A DNA stretch of 64,000 bases from an uncultured Chloroflexota bacterium. Its GTDB lineage: Bacteria; Chloroflexota; Dehalococcoidia; GIF9; AB-539-J10. A program made the translations under genes and the position numbers. The notes beneath the pieces were generated by a model. That model was given only the letters and a program-made list of their open reading frames with translations, searched no databases and was not told the origin of the DNA. The DNA is taken from NCBI GenBank assembly GCA_903884455.1, contig CAISEW010000003.1, positions 41,313 to 105,312 of the forward strand, in the 5' to 3' direction. This document shows positions 6,806 to 28,734 of the stretch, one piece after another; position 1 is the stretch's first letter, and each line of letters starts with the position of its first letter.

Positions 6806-7696
6806 ATGTCGAGATACATAGGCCTCATAGGTTATCCCCTTAAGCATTCTATCTCTCCTTATTTCCAGCAGGCAGCTCTGGATTATTATCGACTTGATAT
6901 TCGGTATGAAACCTGGGAGACTGGTCCAGCCCGACTTCAAGACATAGTGAATAATCTAAGAAAACCTCACAATGTTGGAGCTAACGTAACCGTACCCTAT
7001 AAAGAAGCAGTTTTACCTTTATTAGACGAAGTTGACGATCTGGCAAGTTCGATTGGTGCTGTCAATACCATAGTCAAAAAAGATGATAAGCTTGTGGGTT
7101 TTAATACTGACGCCTATGGTTTTATCGAGGCGCTAGACAAGGAAGGGCACTTTGCCCCTGAAGGAAAGCAGGCGGTCATCTTGGGTGCTGGTGGAGTGGC
7201 CAGGGCAGTGGGCTTTGTCCTGGTGCAAAGGAAGGTAGCCTCACTGGCCATTACTGATGGTATCTTTGAGCGCGCAAGCGCATTGGCCGAAAACTTGGTG
7301 ATGTATATCAAAGGAGCTTCACCAAGCTCGAGGAATTTAGAGCCAGCTATCACTGCTTTTCAGTGGCAGGATCTAAGCTCAGCCAAAACTCTTGATAACT
7401 GCGATTTAATAGTCCATTGCACTACCATAGGAATGAAGCACAGTTCTCAAGAAGGACAATCACCTTTGAGCCTTGAAGTGCTTCCTAAAAACGTCTTAGT
7501 ATATGATGTGGTATATAACCCCTGGCTAACACCCTTGTTAAGGTTAGCACAAAAAGCCGGGGCCAATATACTTGGCGGCCTACCTATGTTAGTATATCAG
7601 GGAGCGGCTTCCTTCAAACTATGGACAGGAAGGAAAGCCCCAGTTGACATAATGTTTAATAAGGCCAAGGAAATATTGACAGGAGGACAGGGGTGA
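6806..7696 (+). CDS. aroE: Shikimate dehydrogenase
   Basis: N-terminus YIGLIGYPLKHSISP; Rossmann GAGGVARAV; 296 aa. Confidence 0.85.
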   Translation: MSRYIGLIGYPLKHSISPYFQQAALDYYRLDIRYETWETGPARLQDIVNNLRKPHNVGANVTVPYKEAVLPLLDEVDDLASSIGAVNTIVKKDDKLVGFNTDAYGFIEALDKEGHFAPEGKQAVILGAGGVARAVGFVLVQRKVASLAITDGIFERASALAENLVMYIKGASPSSRNLEPAITAFQWQDLSSAKTLDNCDLIVHCTTIGMKHSSQEGQSPLSLEVLPKNVLVYDVVYNPWLTPLLRLAQKAGANILGGLPMLVYQGAASFKLWTGRKAPVDIMFNKAKEILTGGQG

Positions 7697-8616
7697 AAAA
7701 AAGGGCCATCATTATCAGTTTGTGCATATTAGCATTGCTTGCGGCGGTACTAATTCCGATTATCTTACTTTCCAGACCGGCAGCAGGTAAAATTGTTGTA
7801 ATCTCGCTCAGTGGGACTATTACCACCGGGGATCCTTCATTGTCCTCTAGCTCGACCATTACCCCGGGGTTGGTGAGGTATTATTTATCGAAAGCGGAGG
7901 CAGATAAAGCAGTCAAAGCAATTGTTTTTCGCATAGAGAGCCCTGGCGGTGAGATAGAGCCCTGCCAGGAAATCCTGTTGGAGATAGAAGGAGCTAAGGC
8001 AACAAAAACCATTGTGGTGAGCATGGGGGGCATGGCTGCCTCAGGCGGCTACTATATCTCAACTCAAGCGGATAAGATTGTTGCCCTTCCCACCACACAG
8101 ACGGGGGCCATCGGAGTTATTTCTGCAGCAATAAACGTCAAGGGGCTCTTGGAAAAGCTCGGTATCCAGATAGAAATCTTCAAAGGCGGCAAGTATAAGG
8201 ACATGTATTGGGGATTGAGAGAGCTGACGCCGGAAGAAGAGACGATCATGCAGCAAATGGTTGATGAATATTACGAGCAATTTATTGATGTGGTGGCTGA
8301 GGGGAGAGGGCTAAGCCAGGAAGTAGTCAAAAATTTAGCTACGGGGCAACTTTACAGTGGCGTCAAAGCCAAAGATTTGGGTCTAGTTGATGAGCTAGGT
8401 GATCTGGATACAGCTATAAATTCGGCAGCAGAACTGGCTGGCATCAAAGCTCCAGTAGTGGAGTATTATAAACAACCTGGATTAATAGGGAGGTTGCTAT
8501 CCGGACTTGTCAACGCCATACAGACGAGGATATCGGGTTTGAGCGCGCAGGATATGATTTTATTGGAAGTCTTAAGCCATAACTATCCCCAACCTCTATT
8601 TCTATATCAAAGTTGA
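7693..8616 (+). CDS. sppA: Signal peptide peptidase SppA (36K type; ClpP/crotonase fold, single N-terminal TM)
   Basis: FRIESPGG...SMGGMAASGGYYIS motifs. GTG start overlaps the aroE stop (GTGA). Confidence 0.8.
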   Translation: MKKRAIIISLCILALLAAVLIPIILLSRPAAGKIVVISLSGTITTGDPSLSSSSTITPGLVRYYLSKAEADKAVKAIVFRIESPGGEIEPCQEILLEIEGAKATKTIVVSMGGMAASGGYYISTQADKIVALPTTQTGAIGVISAAINVKGLLEKLGIQIEIFKGGKYKDMYWGLRELTPEEETIMQQMVDEYYEQFIDVVAEGRGLSQEVVKNLATGQLYSGVKAKDLGLVDELGDLDTAINSAAELAGIKAPVVEYYKQPGLIGRLLSGLVNAIQTRISGLSAQDMILLEVLSHNYPQPLFLYQS

Positions 8617-9785
8617 TGGGACAATTTCGTTTTCTTACTGGTGGAGAATCCCATGGGAAGGGTTTGGTAGCCATCGTAGAAGGGATGGTGGCTGACCTCA
8701 CCCTGGAAGAGGGATATATCCATAAGGAACTCAAACGCCGCCAGCAGGGCTACGGGCGTGGTCCTCGCATGAAGATTGAAGAAGATAAGGCGGAAATTAT
8801 GGCCGGTGTTCGCTATGGGTTCACTACAGGTAGCCCCATCGTCCTCTTTATCATCAACCGAGATTGGCAAAACTGGCAGGAACAGTTAAGCGTTTCCCCG
8901 ATAGAGAAAGAAATCGAGCCTGTAACCTGTCCCCGCCCGGGACATGCCGACCTGGCCGGAGTGACTAAATATGGTCTCAAAGACATCAGGCCGATTATGG
9001 AAAGAGCCAGTGCCCGGGAAACAGCCGCCAGAGTAGCTGTCGGGGCTATAGCCCGAAGATTTCTGGAGGAGTTGGGCATTGCTATCCACAGCCACACTGT
9101 GGCAATTGGGCAACATAGCTGGGAGCGAGGAGAAGCAAACTCTATAGATTGGCAGCAAGTAGAAACCTCTCCAGTCCATTGTGCCCATGCCAAGCTAGAA
9201 AAAGCGATGATGGCAGCTATCAATGAGGCCAAAGCTAATGGCGACACATTAGGAGGCATTTTTGAGGTGATTGCTATTGGTGTCCCCATTGGCTTGGGCA
9301 GCCACGTTAGCTGGGATCGCCGTCTCGATGGCCGAATTGCTCAAGCGATAATGAGCATCAATGCTGTGAAAGGGGTGGAAATCGGAGCAGGATTTGCTCT
9401 AGCCGAACTTAAAGGTTCGCAAGCCCACGATATTATCGAACCCAGCCCACGTAGCAAAGCGAAGGGGTTCCCCTGGCGACATGGCACTAACCGTGCCGGT
9501 GGCATTGAAGGTGGCATAACCAATGGCGAGGACATAATAGTCAAGGCAGCAGTCAAACCTATTGCCACCCTAGCTAGTCCTTTACCTTCTATAGACCTTC
9601 GCAGTGGAGAAGTAGCGAAGGCTCACTATGAACGCAGCGATATTTGTGTTGTCCCGGCCGCCGGAGTGATTGCCGAAGCCATGTTAGCCATTGTTCTGGC
9701 TGACGCTTGCCTAGAGAAATTCGGCGGCGATAACTTAAAAGAGACCCTGGCAAATTATCACAATTATTTGAGCAATATATCTTGA
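8613..9785 (+). CDS. aroC: Chorismate synthase
   Basis: N-terminus GQFRFLTGGESHGKGL, 390 aa. Start overlaps the sppA stop. Confidence 0.95.
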   Translation: MMGQFRFLTGGESHGKGLVAIVEGMVADLTLEEGYIHKELKRRQQGYGRGPRMKIEEDKAEIMAGVRYGFTTGSPIVLFIINRDWQNWQEQLSVSPIEKEIEPVTCPRPGHADLAGVTKYGLKDIRPIMERASARETAARVAVGAIARRFLEELGIAIHSHTVAIGQHSWERGEANSIDWQQVETSPVHCAHAKLEKAMMAAINEAKANGDTLGGIFEVIAIGVPIGLGSHVSWDRRLDGRIAQAIMSINAVKGVEIGAGFALAELKGSQAHDIIEPSPRSKAKGFPWRHGTNRAGGIEGGITNGEDIIVKAAVKPIATLASPLPSIDLRSGEVAKAHYERSDICVVPAAGVIAEAMLAIVLADACLEKFGGDNLKETLANYHNYLSNIS

Positions 9786-23115: not shown

Positions 23116-23384
23116 CATTCACCATTTCTACATACGTGATGCTTAGTTATTGAGTATGGCGCAAACCCTTTCCTTTTGTTTGACGTTAGAGTATTATACA
23201 AGCTACCTACTTGGCAAGGATTTTACATATGAATAGAAAGCTATTGATTGGTTTACTAGCTTTGGGTGTGGCAATGATAGTGGTAGGGTTGGTGATAGTG
23301 TTTGTGGGCTTGCCTTAGCTTAATCGCTCTTGCAATTTATTAGTCTTTTAGCGCTTCAAGGTTCCTGGCCAAATACCAAACAAG

Positions 23385-23409
23385 TTACCACTGGACAAAC
23401 ATTGGGATG
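23385..23409. repeat. Left direct repeat (attL-like): displaced duplicate of the dnaN 3' terminus
   Basis: TTACCACTGGACAAACATTGGGATG versus 27404-27428 TTACCACTGAACAAACAT-GGGCATG. In the minus frame it encodes ...IPMFVQW*, matching the dnaN C-terminus ...MPMFVQW*. Confidence 0.7.
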
Positions 23410-23439
23410 TTAGCCATTCCATGCGTATGTCGCAATGGT

Positions 23440-24288
23440 CTAGCGGCGCTTTGGTTTTTGGCCTAGACCCCATCCTTTTTGACAAGTTCGGAGTATTTTT
23501 GCCTTTTCTTGTTCGGTATATTCAAAGAAATAACTCCTGAATTCGAACATATCGTAAGGGCCCATAATAACAAAGAACTTGCCTTTGGTAGCAAAAAACA
23601 GAGGATTAATATCGCGGCGAACGACATCGGCTAGCCAATTAGCTGCTTTCGTGGCCTCTTTAACGTGGTTTTGGCATTTACTTTGCCAATCCTCATATTC
23701 TTTGAAAAGCTGCCGATATTCTTCTTGTTGTAGCCAGCCTTTAGATTTGTAGAATTTTTCTTCAACCAGTACGCCGTCTGTAGTCTTGCTAGGTTGAGAG
23801 TGTTGAAGAAATGTCTGGTTAGCTTCGTAAATCTCATGTGTCAGTTTTTTCAAAGCACATTCTAGCTCAGGTAGAGTCTTTGGCCATATTGCACCAAGTA
23901 TCTTATTATAGAAAGCGAATAGTCTGACAGATGCGGATTCATCCCAGTTCATATTAACAGATAGTGCTCGAGTCGCCCACTTATCCCAGGTACTAAGCTG
24001 ACAGGCTTCTACGGCGGCATCTATCAAATCTGCATAGATGACGGATTGAGCAGTCGTGGTAGAGTCTTTTGATTGTGAGAGGGTGCGTTCTACCCAGTAT
24101 TCGTGTTGGTCTTTAAAGAGGTGTAGCTTCTCAACCGTATAGTCCTGAGGATTCTTGTCGACCAATGTATGATGAGTGGGACAGAGTAGAATGAGATTGA
24201 AATAGGAGTTTCTTTCTCTCTTGGTCAGATTGCTCTTTCCTCTGGCGTCGTTTTTGCCAAGTCCGACAATATGTGCCTGTTCCCCCAA
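23440..24288 (-). CDS. HNH-endonuclease-domain protein with a roughly 200-aa uncharacterized C-terminal domain; N-terminus apparently disrupted
   Basis: HNH core AHIVGLGK...N...LILLCPTHH. The first Cys pair (CSFPDCE) lies upstream of the track start in the same frame. The only upstream ATG (24423, AAGAGG SD) is followed three codons later by an in-frame TAA (24412-24414). Confidence 0.55.
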   Translation of the reverse strand: MGEQAHIVGLGKNDARGKSNLTKRERNSYFNLILLCPTHHTLVDKNPQDYTVEKLHLFKDQHEYWVERTLSQSKDSTTTAQSVIYADLIDAAVEACQLSTWDKWATRALSVNMNWDESASVRLFAFYNKILGAIWPKTLPELECALKKLTHEIYEANQTFLQHSQPSKTTDGVLVEEKFYKSKGWLQQEEYRQLFKEYEDWQSKCQNHVKEATKAANWLADVVRRDINPLFFATKGKFFVIMGPYDMFEFRSYFFEYTEQEKAKILRTCQKGWGLGQKPKRR

Positions 24289-24516
24289 AGGGAAGCTCTG
24301 AGAAGCCGAGCTTTTGTCCTGGGTCAGCTTGATTTCACAATCAGGGAACGAACATCTTTCAGCTGCCCTTCCCCAAAGTAACTTTATGTCTTTTTGTGCT
24401 ATGTAGATGGTTTAATGCTCCATATTGAATTGATTCTACCTCTTATTGCACCAACATGGGGATGTCTGCCCTTACATGAATGCGTTAGTAGAGGTTTTGT
24501 GTAAGGTCTAATATTA

Positions 24517-25416
24517 TTACTTTTTACTTTGTCCTGTAACATATCTTTTCTTCAGGTTTACAAGTTGATTGTTACGCTTCTGCAACTGGATGCGGATATC
24601 ATCCCAATTCAAAAAGATTGGTATCTCTTCTATTTTAGTTTTGCCATCGAATACGTAGGCAGTGAGTCCCAAGGGGTCTTTTTTATAAACTTCTCTGTAG
24701 TCATCTATAGCTGTTTGTATGGTCGACCTTGCTTCGTTGACACTTTTGGAGGTCATTTGTCGCACTTTATTATGAATTGAACTTAATGCTTCTATATAAC
24801 CTCTTGAAGCAGAAATCAAATCGACCTTGTCTGGCATTTCGTCTAATACCTGTTTCTTAAAACTGCCGTCTGAAGATATAAATTTTCTATCAGCGGAAAA
24901 ACTTGATGAAAACTCCAGTAGACCGCTGATATCAAGAGCAGTCCACCTGCTTCCAAATGCTACCTGGTGAACGGGAGTGCCACTATGTTGGGTGTAGTTT
25001 CTTAAAGCTTCCATAAACCTATAGTCGAAATTTCTATCATACTCAGTTGAACGTAACAATTTTAATCGGTCCTTAATTCCGGTCTCTCTTGGTAAACACG
25101 CACAACAATGGTCAGTCAATCTGTCGGTATAAAGCCTTACTGACGTTAGCAAATTCATGAGCTGTCTGTTCACGGCAAGCCGAGCATCAAAAGAATCAAT
25201 ATACCCACGATAGTTTCGAACCATATATGATATTGAGGCGTTTGTCGACTCCTTTTCCAAATCAATATAGTTGGAAATCATCATTTCGTATTCTTCCTCC
25301 AACTGTAACGCCTCGGCGAGAATATCTCTTGATGCTTTGAGAAGTGAGAATCTCTGACTATCAATAGTTAGTGGTGGAGAATCCCCGAGCGCATTAAGTC
25401 TCAAAAAATATTCCAT
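24517..25416 (-). CDS. Hypothetical protein with an HEPN/Abi-like R-x4-H motif (ALRNYTQHSG)
   Basis: 299 aa, low GC, upstream of and co-oriented with the HNH gene. The Rx4H motif is characteristic of HEPN RNases (AbiD/AbiF-like). Confidence 0.45.
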   Translation of the reverse strand: MEYFLRLNALGDSPPLTIDSQRFSLLKASRDILAEALQLEEEYEMMISNYIDLEKESTNASISYMVRNYRGYIDSFDARLAVNRQLMNLLTSVRLYTDRLTDHCCACLPRETGIKDRLKLLRSTEYDRNFDYRFMEALRNYTQHSGTPVHQVAFGSRWTALDISGLLEFSSSFSADRKFISSDGSFKKQVLDEMPDKVDLISASRGYIEALSSIHNKVRQMTSKSVNEARSTIQTAIDDYREVYKKDPLGLTAYVFDGKTKIEEIPIFLNWDDIRIQLQKRNNQLVNLKKRYVTGQSKK

Positions 25417-25756
25417 TGTACTAGTTAATTAATTTCATTTTTATACGATAGGGTTAGTTGTCATGTGGAATATTATGTACTGAATGGTAAAATACTTCAA
25501 TATGGAAAAATGAAGCGATCGACTTAAGGAGTGAATAAAATTAAGACTGTAGCGGAAAACCATTCATGGTTTAGAGGCACTCCTTATTACTGGGCATCCG
25601 CATCATTACCTTTAGCATATGCGGTGGCGTGTGTTGAAGTTGCTTGTGAAATGTCAAGAAAAGCCAGCTACTCACCTGGTTGACGAGGCTATCAAGATGG
25701 GTGCAAAAATTGTTTCGGTTGGTATTGGAAAACTCGGGTATCGCGTAAAAAGGGTA

Positions 25757-25785
25757 TTGACAAAAAATCAGAATAGTATTACTAT
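25757..25785 (+). promoter_or_regulatory. Promoter TTGACA-17-TACTAT for the gene at 25844
   Basis: Hexamers and spacing read directly. AGGGGGTG SD 8 nt before the ATG. Confidence 0.55.
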
Positions 25786-25826
25786 ATAGTAGCGCTATTG
25801 TTTATATACAACAGTAGTAATACTAT
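25773..25826. promoter_or_regulatory. Pair of near-identical palindromic operator-like sites (ATAGTATTACTAT / AGTAGTAATACTAT) bracketing the -10 and +20 region
   Basis: Each site is internally palindromic around AGTAwTACT. The two form an inverted repeat about 40 bp apart. Confidence 0.5.
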
Positions 25827-25843
25827 AAAGGGGGTGAATTTTC

Positions 25844-26446
25844 ATGGATAAGACACAATTAGCTAAGTGGAAGGAAGAAATAGAAATGGAATTAGCTGAG
25901 GTTGAGAAACAACTAACAGTGATAGAAAAGGAGCGAGCCGCACTTAAGGCGCAACTGGGAGCGGTTAGGACACTACTTTCTCCAACGGAAGAAATAACCG
26001 CAATTGAGAATTATGAAGTGAGAGACCTTGTAGGTGCGTTCATAGCAGATTTGAAAGTGAATGGTTGGTCTGTTCGGAAGCATGCAGGGAAAATTAGGAG
26101 CTATGACGCGAACCGAGGCGGTCAAAGTGTTGAACTGTGGATAATATTCAGTAAATTTCACGAGGTAAGCGAACGATATTGGTTTGGTGTGAATCCAGAC
26201 CATCTTGAAAATAGGAATGGCGGGGTTATCTTGCTGCTCGGTACTCACAAGAAGTACATTTGCTTGCCGTTTACTAAACTACAGGAGATGCTGGAGCGTT
26301 CAAAGAATACGATAACTGGCAAGAAATTCGTGGTAAGGGAGAAAAGCGGGCAAGTTGAGCTCCAGCCTGCAGGAATCGGCGGCAAATGGATAAATGTTAC
26401 CGAGTACTTAAATGAGGAAGGGCTAAAGAGAATTGGTATTAACTAA
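25844..26446 (+). CDS. Hypothetical protein, N-terminal coiled coil plus a C-terminal globular domain
   Basis: 200 aa, strong SD, islet cargo; no recognisable family. Confidence 0.55.
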   Translation: MDKTQLAKWKEEIEMELAEVEKQLTVIEKERAALKAQLGAVRTLLSPTEEITAIENYEVRDLVGAFIADLKVNGWSVRKHAGKIRSYDANRGGQSVELWIIFSKFHEVSERYWFGVNPDHLENRNGGVILLLGTHKKYICLPFTKLQEMLERSKNTITGKKFVVREKSGQVELQPAGIGGKWINVTEYLNEEGLKRIGIN

Positions 26447-26470
26447 GAACAAGAAGGAAGTAAATAGAAA

Positions 26471-26581
26471 ATGATGAAAGTAGCTATCTATTGCCGTGTA
26501 AGCACTGAAGGTCAAGAACAGTGTCCAAAATGCCGTTCTCCTTATTGGAATAAGCCGAAACGGAAGGGAATAACTAAGTAA
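26471..26581 (+). pseudogene. Relic of a large serine recombinase: 36-aa ORF joining the catalytic N-terminus (AIYCRVSTEGQEQ) to a C-terminal zinc-ribbon remnant (CPKCRSPYWNKPKRKG)
   Basis: The RVST-x2-Q N-terminal signature is followed directly by a CxxC zinc-ribbon tail, implying a large internal deletion. Its stop overlaps the next gene's ATG (TAATG). Confidence 0.55.
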
Positions 26582-27177
26582 TGAATATTAAGGTAACCCC
26601 TGCACCCGCAAAAGCAGCAGCCGCTACTCATCCACCGACAATAGCAATGCGGAAAGAACTGTATATATTGATGTATGACGTAGCCCAAAAACATAGGGAT
26701 GAAGCAAAAAAAGTTGATGGCAAAAATCAGACTGAAGAAATTCAGCATTCAATGATATGTATTTTATTCTGCTATACATGTTTGGAAGCATTCATCAATA
26801 CTGTCGGAAAAGACAAGCTAGGTGAGATATGGGAGGAAAAATGGGGGAAATATAGGAGACCTCAAACTGAGGGTAAATGGATGGGAGTGTCCAATCTTCT
26901 ATCAAACAAGAAACACAGAAAACCACACTCGGTTTTCAAAAATAGCGAGGATCCCTTCAAGTCATTTCTATATTTAGAGAAAATCAGAGAAGATTATTTA
27001 GTCCATAGAAAAGCGGAATTTAGCGAAGTTGTTAAAACAAAATATGGAAACACCGAGGGGACAATAAACATTTTGAATGCTAATACAGCAGATTGGGCTT
27101 GCAAAACGGTAAAACAAATGGTGCTTAAACTAGTTGAGAATATGGATGACGCGCCAGAAGTGAAGTGGGTTAAATAA
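26581..27177 (+). CDS. Hypothetical protein (198 aa) with a possible HEPN-like R-x5-H motif (IREDYLVHRK)
   Basis: ORF within the islet; no housekeeping similarity. Confidence 0.5.
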   Translation: MNIKVTPAPAKAAAATHPPTIAMRKELYILMYDVAQKHRDEAKKVDGKNQTEEIQHSMICILFCYTCLEAFINTVGKDKLGEIWEEKWGKYRRPQTEGKWMGVSNLLSNKKHRKPHSVFKNSEDPFKSFLYLEKIREDYLVHRKAEFSEVVKTKYGNTEGTINILNANTADWACKTVKQMVLKLVENMDDAPEVKWVK

Positions 27178-27192
27178 TATTAGGAATAAAAA

Positions 27193-27351
27193 GTGAAAGC
27201 TGCAATCTACTGCCGTGTAAGCACTGAAGGGCAAGAGCAAGATGGCACAAGCCTGTAAACTCAACTGGAATCTTGCCGTAAATATTGCCAGGCTAGGCGG
27301 TATGAAGTCGGGCACGAGTTGAACGAAGCATGGTCCACCAGAAACGAATAG
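27193..27351 (+). pseudogene. Relic of a second large serine recombinase: N-terminal ~50 codons with an in-frame TAA, then truncated
   Basis: VKAAIYCRVSTEGQEQDGTSL-TAA-TQLESCRKYCQARRYEVGHELNEAWS fits the recombinase N-domain consensus (RVSTxxQ...SLxxQLExCRxYA...GxEV). About 39/45 nt identical to the 5' end of the other relic (26476-26520). Confidence 0.6.
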
Positions 27352-27385
27352 GCGTCTGATTTGCACCAGACGCCTGTTTCAATTT
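27350..27385 (+). terminator. Intrinsic terminator, probably bidirectional (also closes dnaN)
   Basis: AGGCGTCTG / CAGACGCCT 9-bp stem with an 8-nt loop, followed by GTTTCAATTT. T-rich on the other side as well. Confidence 0.55.
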
Positions 27386-27403
27386 ATGCGAAACTAAAAT
27401 CTA

Positions 27404-27428
27404 TTACCACTGAACAAACATGGGCATG
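27404..27428. repeat. Right direct repeat (attR-like): the functional 3' terminus of dnaN
   Basis: See the repeat feature at 23385-23409. Confidence 0.7.
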
Positions 27429-28540
27429 ACCACGTGAACATAATTGTCCACGCCTATAGGGCGAATAGTTCCCGGGCTTGAGGGGGTGGTGAGTTCTAGA
27501 GCGACTTGGGCTTGGGAAAGGACAGATAAAACATCGGAAAGATATCTTACATTAAAAGCGATTTTCGCCTCTTCTCCGTCAGTGAGAGCGTCCACTTCAC
27601 CAACATTGTCGCCAACCTCTTCAGCCTGAGCTGAAACAGTTATCTTTCCTGGAGCAAGTTCACTACCAGGGGTAATGACCAGGCGAACTATACCACTGGC
27701 ATCGCGAGCAAATATGGAGGACATTTTAGTAACCCGCAAAAATTCATTAATGTCCACTACAGCTCGCGTGGTATAGCTTTGAGGAATAACCTGGGAATAA
27801 TTGGGGAATGAACCTTGAATAAGCTGAGAAACCAGCTCAGCATCCTTGAGGCGGAAGAGAACCTGGCTCTTTTTTTCGTTTACGGTGATTTCTACGGGTT
27901 CCTCCTGTTCACCAATAAGGCGATTCAGTTCATTAAGGGTTCTCGCTGGGATGATAACCGTAGTCTTTTCTTTGACTGGTGAGCTAAGAGTTGTCTTATG
28001 AACAGCTAGCCTGAAGCCATCGGCAGCCGCCAGGTTGAGCTGCTCGCCATCGAATTCAGTGTTAATTCCGGTTAATACCGGGCGGGATTCTTCAGTGGCA
28101 GCAGCAAAGGCGACCTGCGCAATCCCTTCCCTGAGGCTAGCTGCCTCAATGGTGGTAGTTATGCCATCGTTTATCTGAGGGATAGGTGGGAAATCCGCGG
28201 CATCAATGCCATGAATATGAGCTTGAAAATGGCCGCTCTTAAGCTCCAGGATGCGACTGTTAGCGGGAAGATTGACTTCAATTAGGTCGTTGGGTAAGGA
28301 ATTAACAAAGTCGCTGAGCAAGCGAGCAGGTACAGTTATGTCTCCCTTCTGTTTCACTTTAGCACCAACCCAGCACGTGATAGCCATTTCCAGGTTGGTG
28401 GCTGACAATTTGAGACGTGATTGCTCAGCGGATAAAAGGATATTTTGGGTGATAGGTAAAGTGGACCTCGTGGCTACAGCTCTCCCTACAATGCTTAGCC
28501 CCCTATTTAAGTTTTCTTGAAGACAAGATAATTTCATGGA
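27404..28540 (-). CDS. dnaN: DNA polymerase III beta subunit (sliding clamp)
   Basis: MKLSCLQENLNRGLSIV... three-domain clamp. The ORF is open to 28582, but the canonical start is MKLS at 28540. No dnaA is adjacent. Confidence 0.9.
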   Translation of the reverse strand, partial: SMKLSCLQENLNRGLSIVGRAVATRSTLPITQNILLSAEQSRLKLSATNLEMAITCWVGAKVKQKGDITVPARLLSDFVNSLPNDLIEVNLPANSRILELKSGHFQAHIHGIDAADFPPIPQINDGITTTIEAASLREGIAQVAFAAATEESRPVLTGINTEFDGEQLNLAAADGFRLAVHKTTLSSPVKEKTTVIIPARTLNELNRLIGEQEEPVEITVNEKKSQVLFRLKDAELVSQLIQGSFPNYSQVIPQSYTTRAVVDINEFLRVTKMSSIFARDASGIVRLVITPGSELAPGKITVSAQAEEVGDNVGEVDALTDGEEAKIAFNVRYLSDVLSVLSQAQVALELTTPSSPGTIRPIGVDNYVHVVMPMFVQW

Positions 28541-28734
28541 ATACCTCCCCCTCTGTGAATAATGACAGTATACTATCAACAAGTGTAATAATCAATGATT
28601 CTATTTGACATAATACTGGATTCGTTAAAGGCACATTACCACTGGTTATTATGGTTAAGCGAGCTTACTTTCTTAGCTGTAGGCTGGTATTTTCAATCTA
28701 ATAAACCCTCTGCTACAAGACCACCACGCTGTAA

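Follow-up and report, generated by a model that had tools for sequence, protein, structure and literature searches.

Two neighbouring genes in a genomic islet of an uncultured Chloroflexota bacterium raise the question whether they act together or merely stand side by side. They are located on a 64-kb stretch of DNA (in the following, the window) downstream of dnaN, which encodes the beta subunit of DNA polymerase III (27404–28582, minus strand), and are transcribed in the same direction as dnaN. Gene A (24517–25416, minus strand) starts with ATG and encodes a mostly helical protein of 299 amino acids (aa) with an R-x4-H motif; the gene that follows it (HNH gene, 23440–24408, minus strand) encodes an HNH endonuclease. 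The initial annotation had combined both into a candidate two-gene defence or toxin module. The two open reading frames (ORFs) and their common orientation could be confirmed, with the HNH gene ending at 23440. The nearest relatives of the window's genes belong to metagenome-assembled genomes of Dehalococcoidales and Dehalococcoidaceae, which points to a Dehalococcoidia-type genome. The guanine and cytosine (GC) content is 0.37–0.45 between 23.0 and 27.5 kb compared with 0.48–0.51 in the flanks. Together with repeats of the dnaN end and the presence or absence of units among relatives, both described below, the low GC content supports the earlier proposal that the islet containing gene A and the HNH gene was horizontally acquired.

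Repeats of the dnaN 3′ end delimit units of the islet

The last ~50 nucleotides (nt) of dnaN (27403–27456, encoding ...MPMFVQW and the stop codon) are repeated in the same orientation at 24441–24493 and 23384–23435 (repeat family D2). An nhmmer search with this repeat gave exactly three matches in the window. The copy within dnaN would be the master copy and the presumed integration target. The relic copy at 24441–24493 (E = 9.6e-15; alignment A4) separates the gene A segment from the HNH cassette, and the copy at 23384–23435, which encodes ...IPMFVQW and a stop codon (E = 1.7e-16), forms the distal border of that cassette. The HNH gene is the only gene between these two copies. Thus, as in genomic islands, direct repeats of the 3′ end of the target gene bound the units, with three copies in the window.

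Comparison with related loci (fetched loci are numbered L, homologous proteins P) showed that units are present or absent exactly at the repeats. In L085, a single hybrid repeat joins the 3′ flank of gene A to the sequence beyond the distal copy, without the HNH gene, and represents an exact empty site (alignment A4); in the blastn map, window position 24445 is joined directly to 23430. At the position of the HNH unit, L087, L088, L089 and L092 contain 0.8–4.5 kb of unrelated DNA. In L007, a PIN-domain gene is followed by the repeat and then by the HNH gene, while an unrelated 199-aa gene takes the place of the PIN gene in L008. The order in L001, whose DnaN is 90.5% identical to that of the window, is dnaN, gene A, repeat, PEPCK, repeat, DUF4382, repeat. 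The ATP-dependent PEPCK gene of this locus (6975–8985) is of full length and apparently a cassette between two dnaN-end repeats; hence, the cargo of the array is not solely nuclease-like. Up to four dnaN-end repeats occur per related locus and bound successive units in several related metagenomic contigs (L001 at 5587, 6921, 8932 and 10690; L089 at 1398, 3183 and 5283; L092 at 70, 1351, 2710 and 2820). A literature search for dnaN as an integration site revealed nothing relevant.

For the analysis of co-occurrence, we collected 56 genome and 11 viral loci of the HNH family and 80 metagenome and 4 viral loci of gene A, together with the contigs of selected homologues, and searched all ORFs of these loci with hidden Markov models of both families. 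Relatives of gene A were present in 90 loci (53 with at least 1.1 kb downstream) and HNH relatives in 68, and both families were found together in none of the 158 related loci. The initial annotation had stated that homologues which never co-occur would speak against its module, and this is what the search returned. Clustering of neighbouring genes revealed no conserved partner of the HNH family, any shared neighbour being present in at most 3 of the 58 loci examined. For gene A, the sole recurrent neighbour is a small divergent ORF that is restricted to close relatives. On sequence grounds, the pair is best described as a juxtaposition of two independently acquired cassettes and not as a two-gene system. 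Most probably, small units that integrated one behind the other at the 3′ end of dnaN make up the islet from 23384 to 27404, and gene A and the HNH gene reside in different ones and form no functional pair. Of greater interest than the gene pair is the cassette array itself: in a class of environmental importance, the dnaN end is a likely site-specific insertion hotspot for very small units, often of a single gene.

Gene A encodes a candidate HEPN-type RNase

The initial annotation had read the sequence ALRNYTQH, which we located at residues 137–144 of the gene A protein, as the R-x4-H signature of HEPN RNases. By our own estimate, a single R-x4-H is expected by chance about 0.3 times in a protein of 299 residues, so the motif carries weight only because it is conserved. 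The family of gene A is large: clustering at 90% identity gave at least 211 clusters, and 3786 representatives were counted at 50% identity (E up to 0.001). All of them lack a Pfam domain and an informative name, and there is no NCBIfam family. In alignments of 50 homologues (A1) and of 75 divergent homologues with 31–41% identity (A3), every sequence has R139 and H144, and conservation of N140 and Q143 is at least 90%. Only four columns, E40, R139, H144 and R219, are invariant among the 75 divergent proteins. The family therefore shows the conserved Rx4-6H with a polar residue after R that defines the HEPN motif (PMC3710099).

HEPN proteins are built on a four-helix up-down core. According to the HEPN survey (PMC3710099), the motif ends helix 3, R is followed by a polar residue, an insert separates helices 2 and 3, and helix 2 carries an acidic residue. 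In the AlphaFold2 model of gene A (pLDDT 93.7), the motif lies at the C-terminal end of helix 130–144. This is the third long helix; two long helices and one short, inserted helix lie before it, and the loop to the next long helix comes after it. The acidic D98 in helix 2 is conserved to at least 90%. Both the placement of the motif and D98 fit the published description. In addition, gene A has large beta-hairpin and helical inserts.

Support from profile searches was limited. PF18733 (HEPN_LA2681) was matched by 5 of 125 scanned members (3 of 50 in A1, 2 of 75 in A3), with a best E value of 6.4e-4, and was the only nuclease family to recur in both member-by-member scans; the gene A protein of the window itself gave no PF18733 match in the Pfam scan. 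Searches of this protein against Pfam, NCBIfam, PADLOC and PHROGs yielded nothing usable: phrog_30874, matched at E = 8e-9, is of unknown function, and the sole PADLOC match was a weak one to ZorC (E = 0.0053, 13.5 bits). The family profile had zero matches among PDB sequences even at E up to 10, and fold searches with the model returned no significant structural match to any HEPN protein. The top Foldseek matches in the PDB were components of ClyA-family pore-forming toxins (Hbl-B, NheA, SmhA/B, Cry6Aa). With E values of at least 0.012 and a TM score of ~0.15 they are not significant and probably reflect a long-helix artefact.

It is conceivable, if somewhat unlikely, that gene A encodes no RNase at all but a helical protein with a structural, membrane-active or regulatory function, whose conserved R and H have a different role. 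Such a protein would explain why no significant structural match to an HEPN protein and no PDB sequence of any kind was retrieved, why the strongest HEPN match in Pfam among the scanned members is only weak, and why ClyA-type components, though not significant, head the Foldseek list. It would not explain why two of the four columns that are invariant in 75 divergent members are the R and H of RNxxQH with a polar residue after R, why this motif is located as the HEPN literature describes, and why PF18733 is the only nuclease family recurring in both scans. We therefore consider an HEPN-type RNase the likeliest function of gene A, a rather likely one judging from sequence conservation and the predicted model. 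Of the earlier assignment, the invariance of R139 and H144 and the HEPN-like position of the motif stood up, whereas the profile evidence is weak and no matching fold was found. Gene A would act as a stand-alone, metal-independent RNase of the HEPN type using R139, N140 and H144, probably as a dimer, and would serve as a toxin or abortive-infection effector.

The closest described relative would be the HEPN LA2681-like family (PF18733; PMC3710099), which also has R-[polar]-x3-H at the end of the third core helix and is encoded by stand-alone genes often near restriction-modification genes; the long helical hairpins of gene A add to the likeness. Unlike LA2681, for which TPR fusions or operons are listed, gene A has no TPR fusion and no TPR operon. 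Further differences are the large inserts of gene A, fold searches that retrieve no HEPN structures, and matches to PF18733 or any other HEPN model of Pfam that are not stronger than E 6.4e-4.

The HNH gene is predicted to start at an ATC codon

The spacing of 93 bp that had been annotated between gene A and the HNH gene had to be corrected. The ATG at 24423 on which it was based reads ATG GAG CAT TAA (24412–24423, minus strand) and thus runs into a stop after three codons. The longest, and only, ORF with a canonical start extends from a TTG at 24288 to 23440 (282 aa), and no ATG, GTG or TTG exists upstream of codon 41. This ORF is devoid of the first 40 codons, which encode the N-terminal helix and the CxxxxC zinc ligands present in all full-length homologues. 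Comparison with relatives placed the start at ATC 24408–24406, 108 nt after gene A, from where the protein comprises ~322 aa. In the slightly more distant Dehalococcoidia relatives L009–L013, an ATG occupies the exact position of the window's ATC, and the closest relatives, L007 and L008, show the same layout as the window, ATG-x-x-TAA-ACC-ATC (window 24406–24423, minus strand; L007 1219–1240; L008 806–825). The sequences ATGGGGGAT and ATGGAG, found in L010 and L011 at 7–9 nt upstream of the start, represent a ribosome-binding site of the GGAG type. The ATGGAG arrangement of the window is common to L007, L008, L010 and L011, and the supposed ATG start is accordingly a GGAG ribosome-binding region followed by an in-frame stop.

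The pN/pS ratio against L008 was 0.15–0.20 in the 40 codons from ATC to TTG and 0.22–0.24 in the rest of the gene. Purifying selection is therefore alike on both sides of the TTG, which argues for translation of the 40 upstream codons. We conclude from the comparison of related sequences that the HNH gene starts at the ATC, a non-canonical start kept in at least three lineages. AUC codons initiate translation weakly, and the ATC start would hold synthesis of a dangerous nuclease very low. Termination-reinitiation via the mini-ORF at 24412–24423 (MEH and stop) was also considered and was dropped, as relatives show ATGGAG to be the Shine–Dalgarno region upstream of the homologous ATG.

Alternatively, loss of the ATG might have silenced the HNH gene, which would then be a decaying pseudogene in a pair without present function. 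An ATC at the start position, with no ATG, GTG or TTG ahead of codon 41, would be expected of such a gene, and the recombinase and the small divergent ORF nearby are clearly decayed. This explanation is nevertheless unlikely. The same ATC and GGAG region occurs in three lineages with proteins that are 85–87% identical, the 320-codon frame is intact in each of them, pN/pS against L008 is 0.15–0.24 both upstream and downstream of the TTG, and every catalytic and zinc residue is retained. The HNH gene would then be a natural example of a nuclease gene kept with a non-canonical ATC start in several lineages, 40 codons of which are dropped by gene callers. With standard ORF callers, the dimerization helix and two zinc ligands are lost, and proteins of only 282 or 274 aa remain (P0121, P0146).

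The HNH protein combines a Cap5/SPARHA-type head with a separate helical domain

The first ~120 aa of the HNH protein match HNH_2 and models of CBASS/SAVED-HNH effectors. In PADLOC, residues 4–121 match the models of the CBASS HNH effector, SAVED-HNH, PDC-M68A and SduA with E values down to 1.6e-32. In searches of PDB sequences, the family profile matched 9om4 over residues 1–117 (E = 3e-30) and also Cap5 structures (7rwk, E = 4.5e-14); the entry 9om4 represents the HNH-APAZ effector of the Argonaute system SPARHA (PMC12738770). Residues H47, N72, C77, H80 and H81 do not vary within the family, and C20 and C25 vary hardly at all. With its His-Me finger core, catalytic His/Asn/His, zinc site and N-terminal dimerization helix, the region of ~aa 1–115 has the features of a Cap5/SPARHA-type head. 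Such heads are non-specific DNases that are activated by oligomerization via the N-terminal helix (PMC12738770).

The matches to the head end at ~aa 120 and the remainder belongs to no family, which agrees with the initial description of an HNH core fused to an uncharacterized C-terminal domain of ~200 aa. These ~200 residues form a helical domain that gave generic bundle matches only and no specific structural match. The domain occurs almost only behind an HNH head. P0203 and P0207 carry a different, PF01844-type HNH head on a C-terminal domain that is 74% (P0203) or 67% (P0207) identical to that of the window, with a sharp junction near residue 107; by its sequence, this head swap resembles the modular swapping typical of conflict systems. 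The family is found in many phyla and also on plasmids, always as a protein of ~300–330 aa. Most simply, the HNH protein would be a self-contained DNase whose head needs the N-terminal helix to oligomerize and whose helical C-terminal domain is the regulatory or sensing part.

The protein thus belongs to the same HNH subfamily as Cap5 (CBASS HNH-SAVED) and SPARHA HNH-APAZ (PDB 7rwk, 8fm1, 9om4) and shares their N-terminal dimerization helix, Cys/His zinc site and catalytic His/Asn/His. In contrast to these effectors, its C-terminal domain is neither SAVED nor APAZ, and its gene stands alone in every context examined. No CD-NTase or cyclase gene of a CBASS system is present in the islet, and the PADLOC and PDB matches that end at ~aa 120 include no SAVED domain. 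Likewise, the 9om4 match confined to residues 1–117 includes no APAZ domain, and the islet contains no ORF of Argonaute size. The best PADLOC match of the head was PDC-M68A (E = 1.6e-32) of the candidate system PDC-M68. This match covers the head only (profile positions 6–115 of 253), and no M68 partner and no meaningful PADLOC match were found among the neighbouring genes. A literature search for PDC-M68 gave nothing relevant.

Genomic contexts of the two families

In 22 distinct loci, relatives of gene A were accompanied by type I/IIG restriction-modification genes in a few cases, by integrases in up to three and by dnaN in three; the neighbour scan behind these figures counts matching proteins, not loci. 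In 3 of 90 loci (L080 2930–3439, L082 33–368, L106 2541–3095), a gene A homologue is preceded at a distance of 12–18 nt by a co-oriented gene for a TIR-domain protein (TIR_2, E = 6e-12) with a C-terminal hydrophobic or transmembrane segment. This might be a real two-gene arrangement for the gene A family. One gene A homologue was found in a Marinobacter phage.

The neighbours of HNH relatives in 18 loci are mostly housekeeping genes, with sporadic defence genes. On a Shewanella IncC plasmid, an HNH relative is located beside a DUF2726 gene, and weak HNH relatives are present in the 'lysogenic conversion' locus of P2-like phages. From these contexts, both gene A and the HNH gene appear to behave as mobile, stand-alone genes. 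Each is most likely a stand-alone toxin or defence nuclease, as suggested by domain identity and scattered context. Two large families without curated function have thus come into view, each of which can be tested as a one-gene system: one consists of ~300-aa proteins that have no Pfam family and share the invariant RNxxQH motif, the other of proteins in which a Cap5-type HNH head is joined to a new helical domain and heads are naturally swapped.

Do gene A and the HNH gene form a module?

Several points weigh against the array of independent units and the gene functions described above. The gene A segment between the first two repeats contains several genes on both strands, and the picture of one gene per unit fits the HNH gene but less cleanly gene A. 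Neither an intact recombinase nor an excised circle or att crossover point was observed, so active mobility is deduced from comparative presence or absence only. AUC initiation of the HNH gene likewise derives from comparison with relatives, and Pfam HEPN matches to the gene A family are weak and limited to few members. Because HNH neighbourhoods in other phyla are mostly housekeeping, the association of this family with defence is only sporadic. Finally, no terminator became apparent between the two genes of the pair, and read-through could co-transcribe them in this genome.

Such read-through transcription, even if it takes place, does not make the two genes a system. The proposal that the HEPN RNase and the HNH DNase are co-transcribed and co-operate in one defence or toxin-antitoxin-like module could appeal to two co-oriented genes 108 nt apart with no terminator-like site between them, to the nuclease-like appearance of both proteins and to a second genome that has the pair. 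This genome is the only one: the pair recurs in a single near-identical relative, on the contig of P0001, in which gene A is 97% identical. The P0001 contig retains gene A, the HNH gene, a histidine kinase gene and a response regulator gene, and it carries genes for DUF6125, Zincin_1 and chorismate mutase in place of dnaN upstream of gene A; this difference suggests a rearrangement or another position of the array. A module is, however, very improbable and has been largely refuted by the lack of co-occurrence. Not one of the 158 loci carries both families, and the HNH gene, which has repeats of its own on either side, is precisely absent in L085. Its close relatives are preceded by the PIN gene in L007 and by the unrelated 199-aa gene in L008, and gene A relatives stand alone, with neighbours such as dnaN, PEPCK and DnaJ. 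The proposal of a new two-gene defence system therefore does not hold, and there are no grounds for cloning the pair as a unit.

Hardly any weight can be given to the idea that the HNH protein is a homing-type endonuclease which cuts the dnaN end and drives its own cassette and perhaps others there: HNH homing endonucleases are a known class and the target sequence flanks the gene exactly on both sides, but cassettes with the same borders lack it (gene A, PIN, PEPCK), members of its family are found in many phyla at sites other than dnaN, the head of the protein belongs with the non-specific collateral DNases Cap5 and SPARHA and not with homing enzymes, and the serine recombinase relics offer a simpler integration mechanism.

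Recombinase relics and a possible route of integration

A serine recombinase relic (27193–27350, plus strand) adjoins the dnaN end on the opposite strand. It consists of 52 N-terminal codons with one in-frame stop and matches PF00239 (Resolvase) with E = 1.4e-7 at profile positions 1–43 of 145. Homologous relics are present in L085, L087 and L093. A second relic, a 36-aa mini-ORF (26471–26581, plus strand), is a chimera of the 17 N-terminal residues of a serine recombinase and a CPKCRSPYWNKPK tail (CPKC tail); the D1 repeat (46 nt, 87%) belongs to this region. The 52-codon relic and this chimera are all that is present of a recombinase at the attL side. The same recombinase-CPKCRSPYWNKPK chimera was detected in L087 (twice) and L143. 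A motif and peptide search based on the N-terminus of the relic, narrower than a full recombinase screen, revealed neither a further copy of it nor an intact serine recombinase in the window or in the fetched loci.

N-terminal stubs of serine recombinases (MKxAIYCRVSTEGQEQ) recur in the relatives (L087 at about 445–600, 1127–1219 and 2374–2472; L143 93–191; L085 673–828), often fused in frame to the same CPKCRSPYWNKPK tail. The fusions form a conserved mini-ORF of 33–36 aa at junctions of opposite-strand units and might represent a deletion scar or a recombination junction.

In Dehalococcoides, tandem islands at ssrA are bounded by repeats of the target-gene 3′ end, and a serine integrase gene lies on the reverse strand by attL (PMC3146451). 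The array at dnaN resembles these ssrA islands (McMurdie et al., 2011; PMC3146451) in that tandem units have accreted downstream of a single-copy essential gene, that each unit is bounded by a direct repeat of the target-gene 3′ end, and that a serine recombinase gene, in the window a relic, is found on the opposite strand by the attL side. The host class is also the same, the nearest relatives of the window being genomes of Dehalococcoidales. It differs from them in its target, which is the protein-coding dnaN and not the tmRNA gene, in the length of the repeat (~50 nt compared with 20 bp), in the small size of the units (1–3 kb, often single-gene) and in the absence of the six-gene integration module, of which the window has only recombinase stubs of ~50 codons. 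The dnaN array would thus extend the model of the ssrA islands to a protein-coding target. Each unit would enter as a circle bearing a copy of the dnaN end, and the circle would recombine with the chromosomal dnaN end through a serine recombinase. Each new unit would push older units outward, as in the ssrA islands, and the recombinase genes would have decayed later.

The array is also reminiscent of integron cassette arrays, with co-oriented, mostly single-gene, mix-and-match cassettes between short conserved repeats and with a cargo rich in toxins and unknown genes. The repeats of the window are, however, copies of the dnaN 3′ end and not attC hairpins, and the recombinase relic is of the serine type and not an IntI tyrosine recombinase. 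An identity of the repeats with integron attC sites was rejected, since they represent the coding end of dnaN, fold in an ordinary manner (z = −0.06 to −1.7 for the relic copies) and are accompanied by a serine-type relic.

A bolder idea, which is possible but doubtful at present, is that Dehalococcoidia carry an integron-like gene-capture platform at the dnaN 3′ end, serviced in trans by a serine recombinase and stocking stand-alone nuclease toxins or defence genes. At this site, cassettes of one gene with a ~50-nt copy of the dnaN terminus at their end would be gained, reordered and deleted. So far, the HEPN-like gene, the HNH nuclease, the PIN-domain gene, a TIR-linked gene and even PEPCK have been seen as cargo. 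The stock would then include an HEPN-like family that had no name before (about 3,800 representative clusters at 50% identity) and a single-protein system of HNH nuclease and sensor that its AUC start keeps in check.

Other genes of the islet

Two further ORFs are located opposite to dnaN within the islet. The 200-aa ORF (25844–26446, plus strand) is contiguous with gene A in L085, and the 198-aa ORF (26581–27177, plus strand), which lies between the two recombinase relics, is present in L087. Neither of them gave a match in Pfam, PADLOC or NCBIfam, and PHROG matches were marginal.

Upstream of gene A, the window contains a disrupted relic of the small divergent ORF (25484–25790, plus strand; MVKYFNME...SWFRGTPYYWASASLPLAYAVACVEV / ...SWFRDTPHYWAEASLPLAYAVACVEV), which tblastn matched with 69% identity over 51 aa and which has an in-frame stop. 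The ORF MVKYFNME...SWFRDTPHYWAEASLPLAYAVACVEV matched no family. In seven related loci (L001, L002, L089, L090, L091, L092 and L143), the small divergent ORF is located 66–86 nt upstream of gene A. Its length in relatives ranges from 66 to 219 aa (L001 5661–5933; L089 1533–2192 and 3423–3575; L007 1–69). Its 5′ fragment was found at two other places as well, ahead of the PIN gene in L007 and downstream of gene A in L089.

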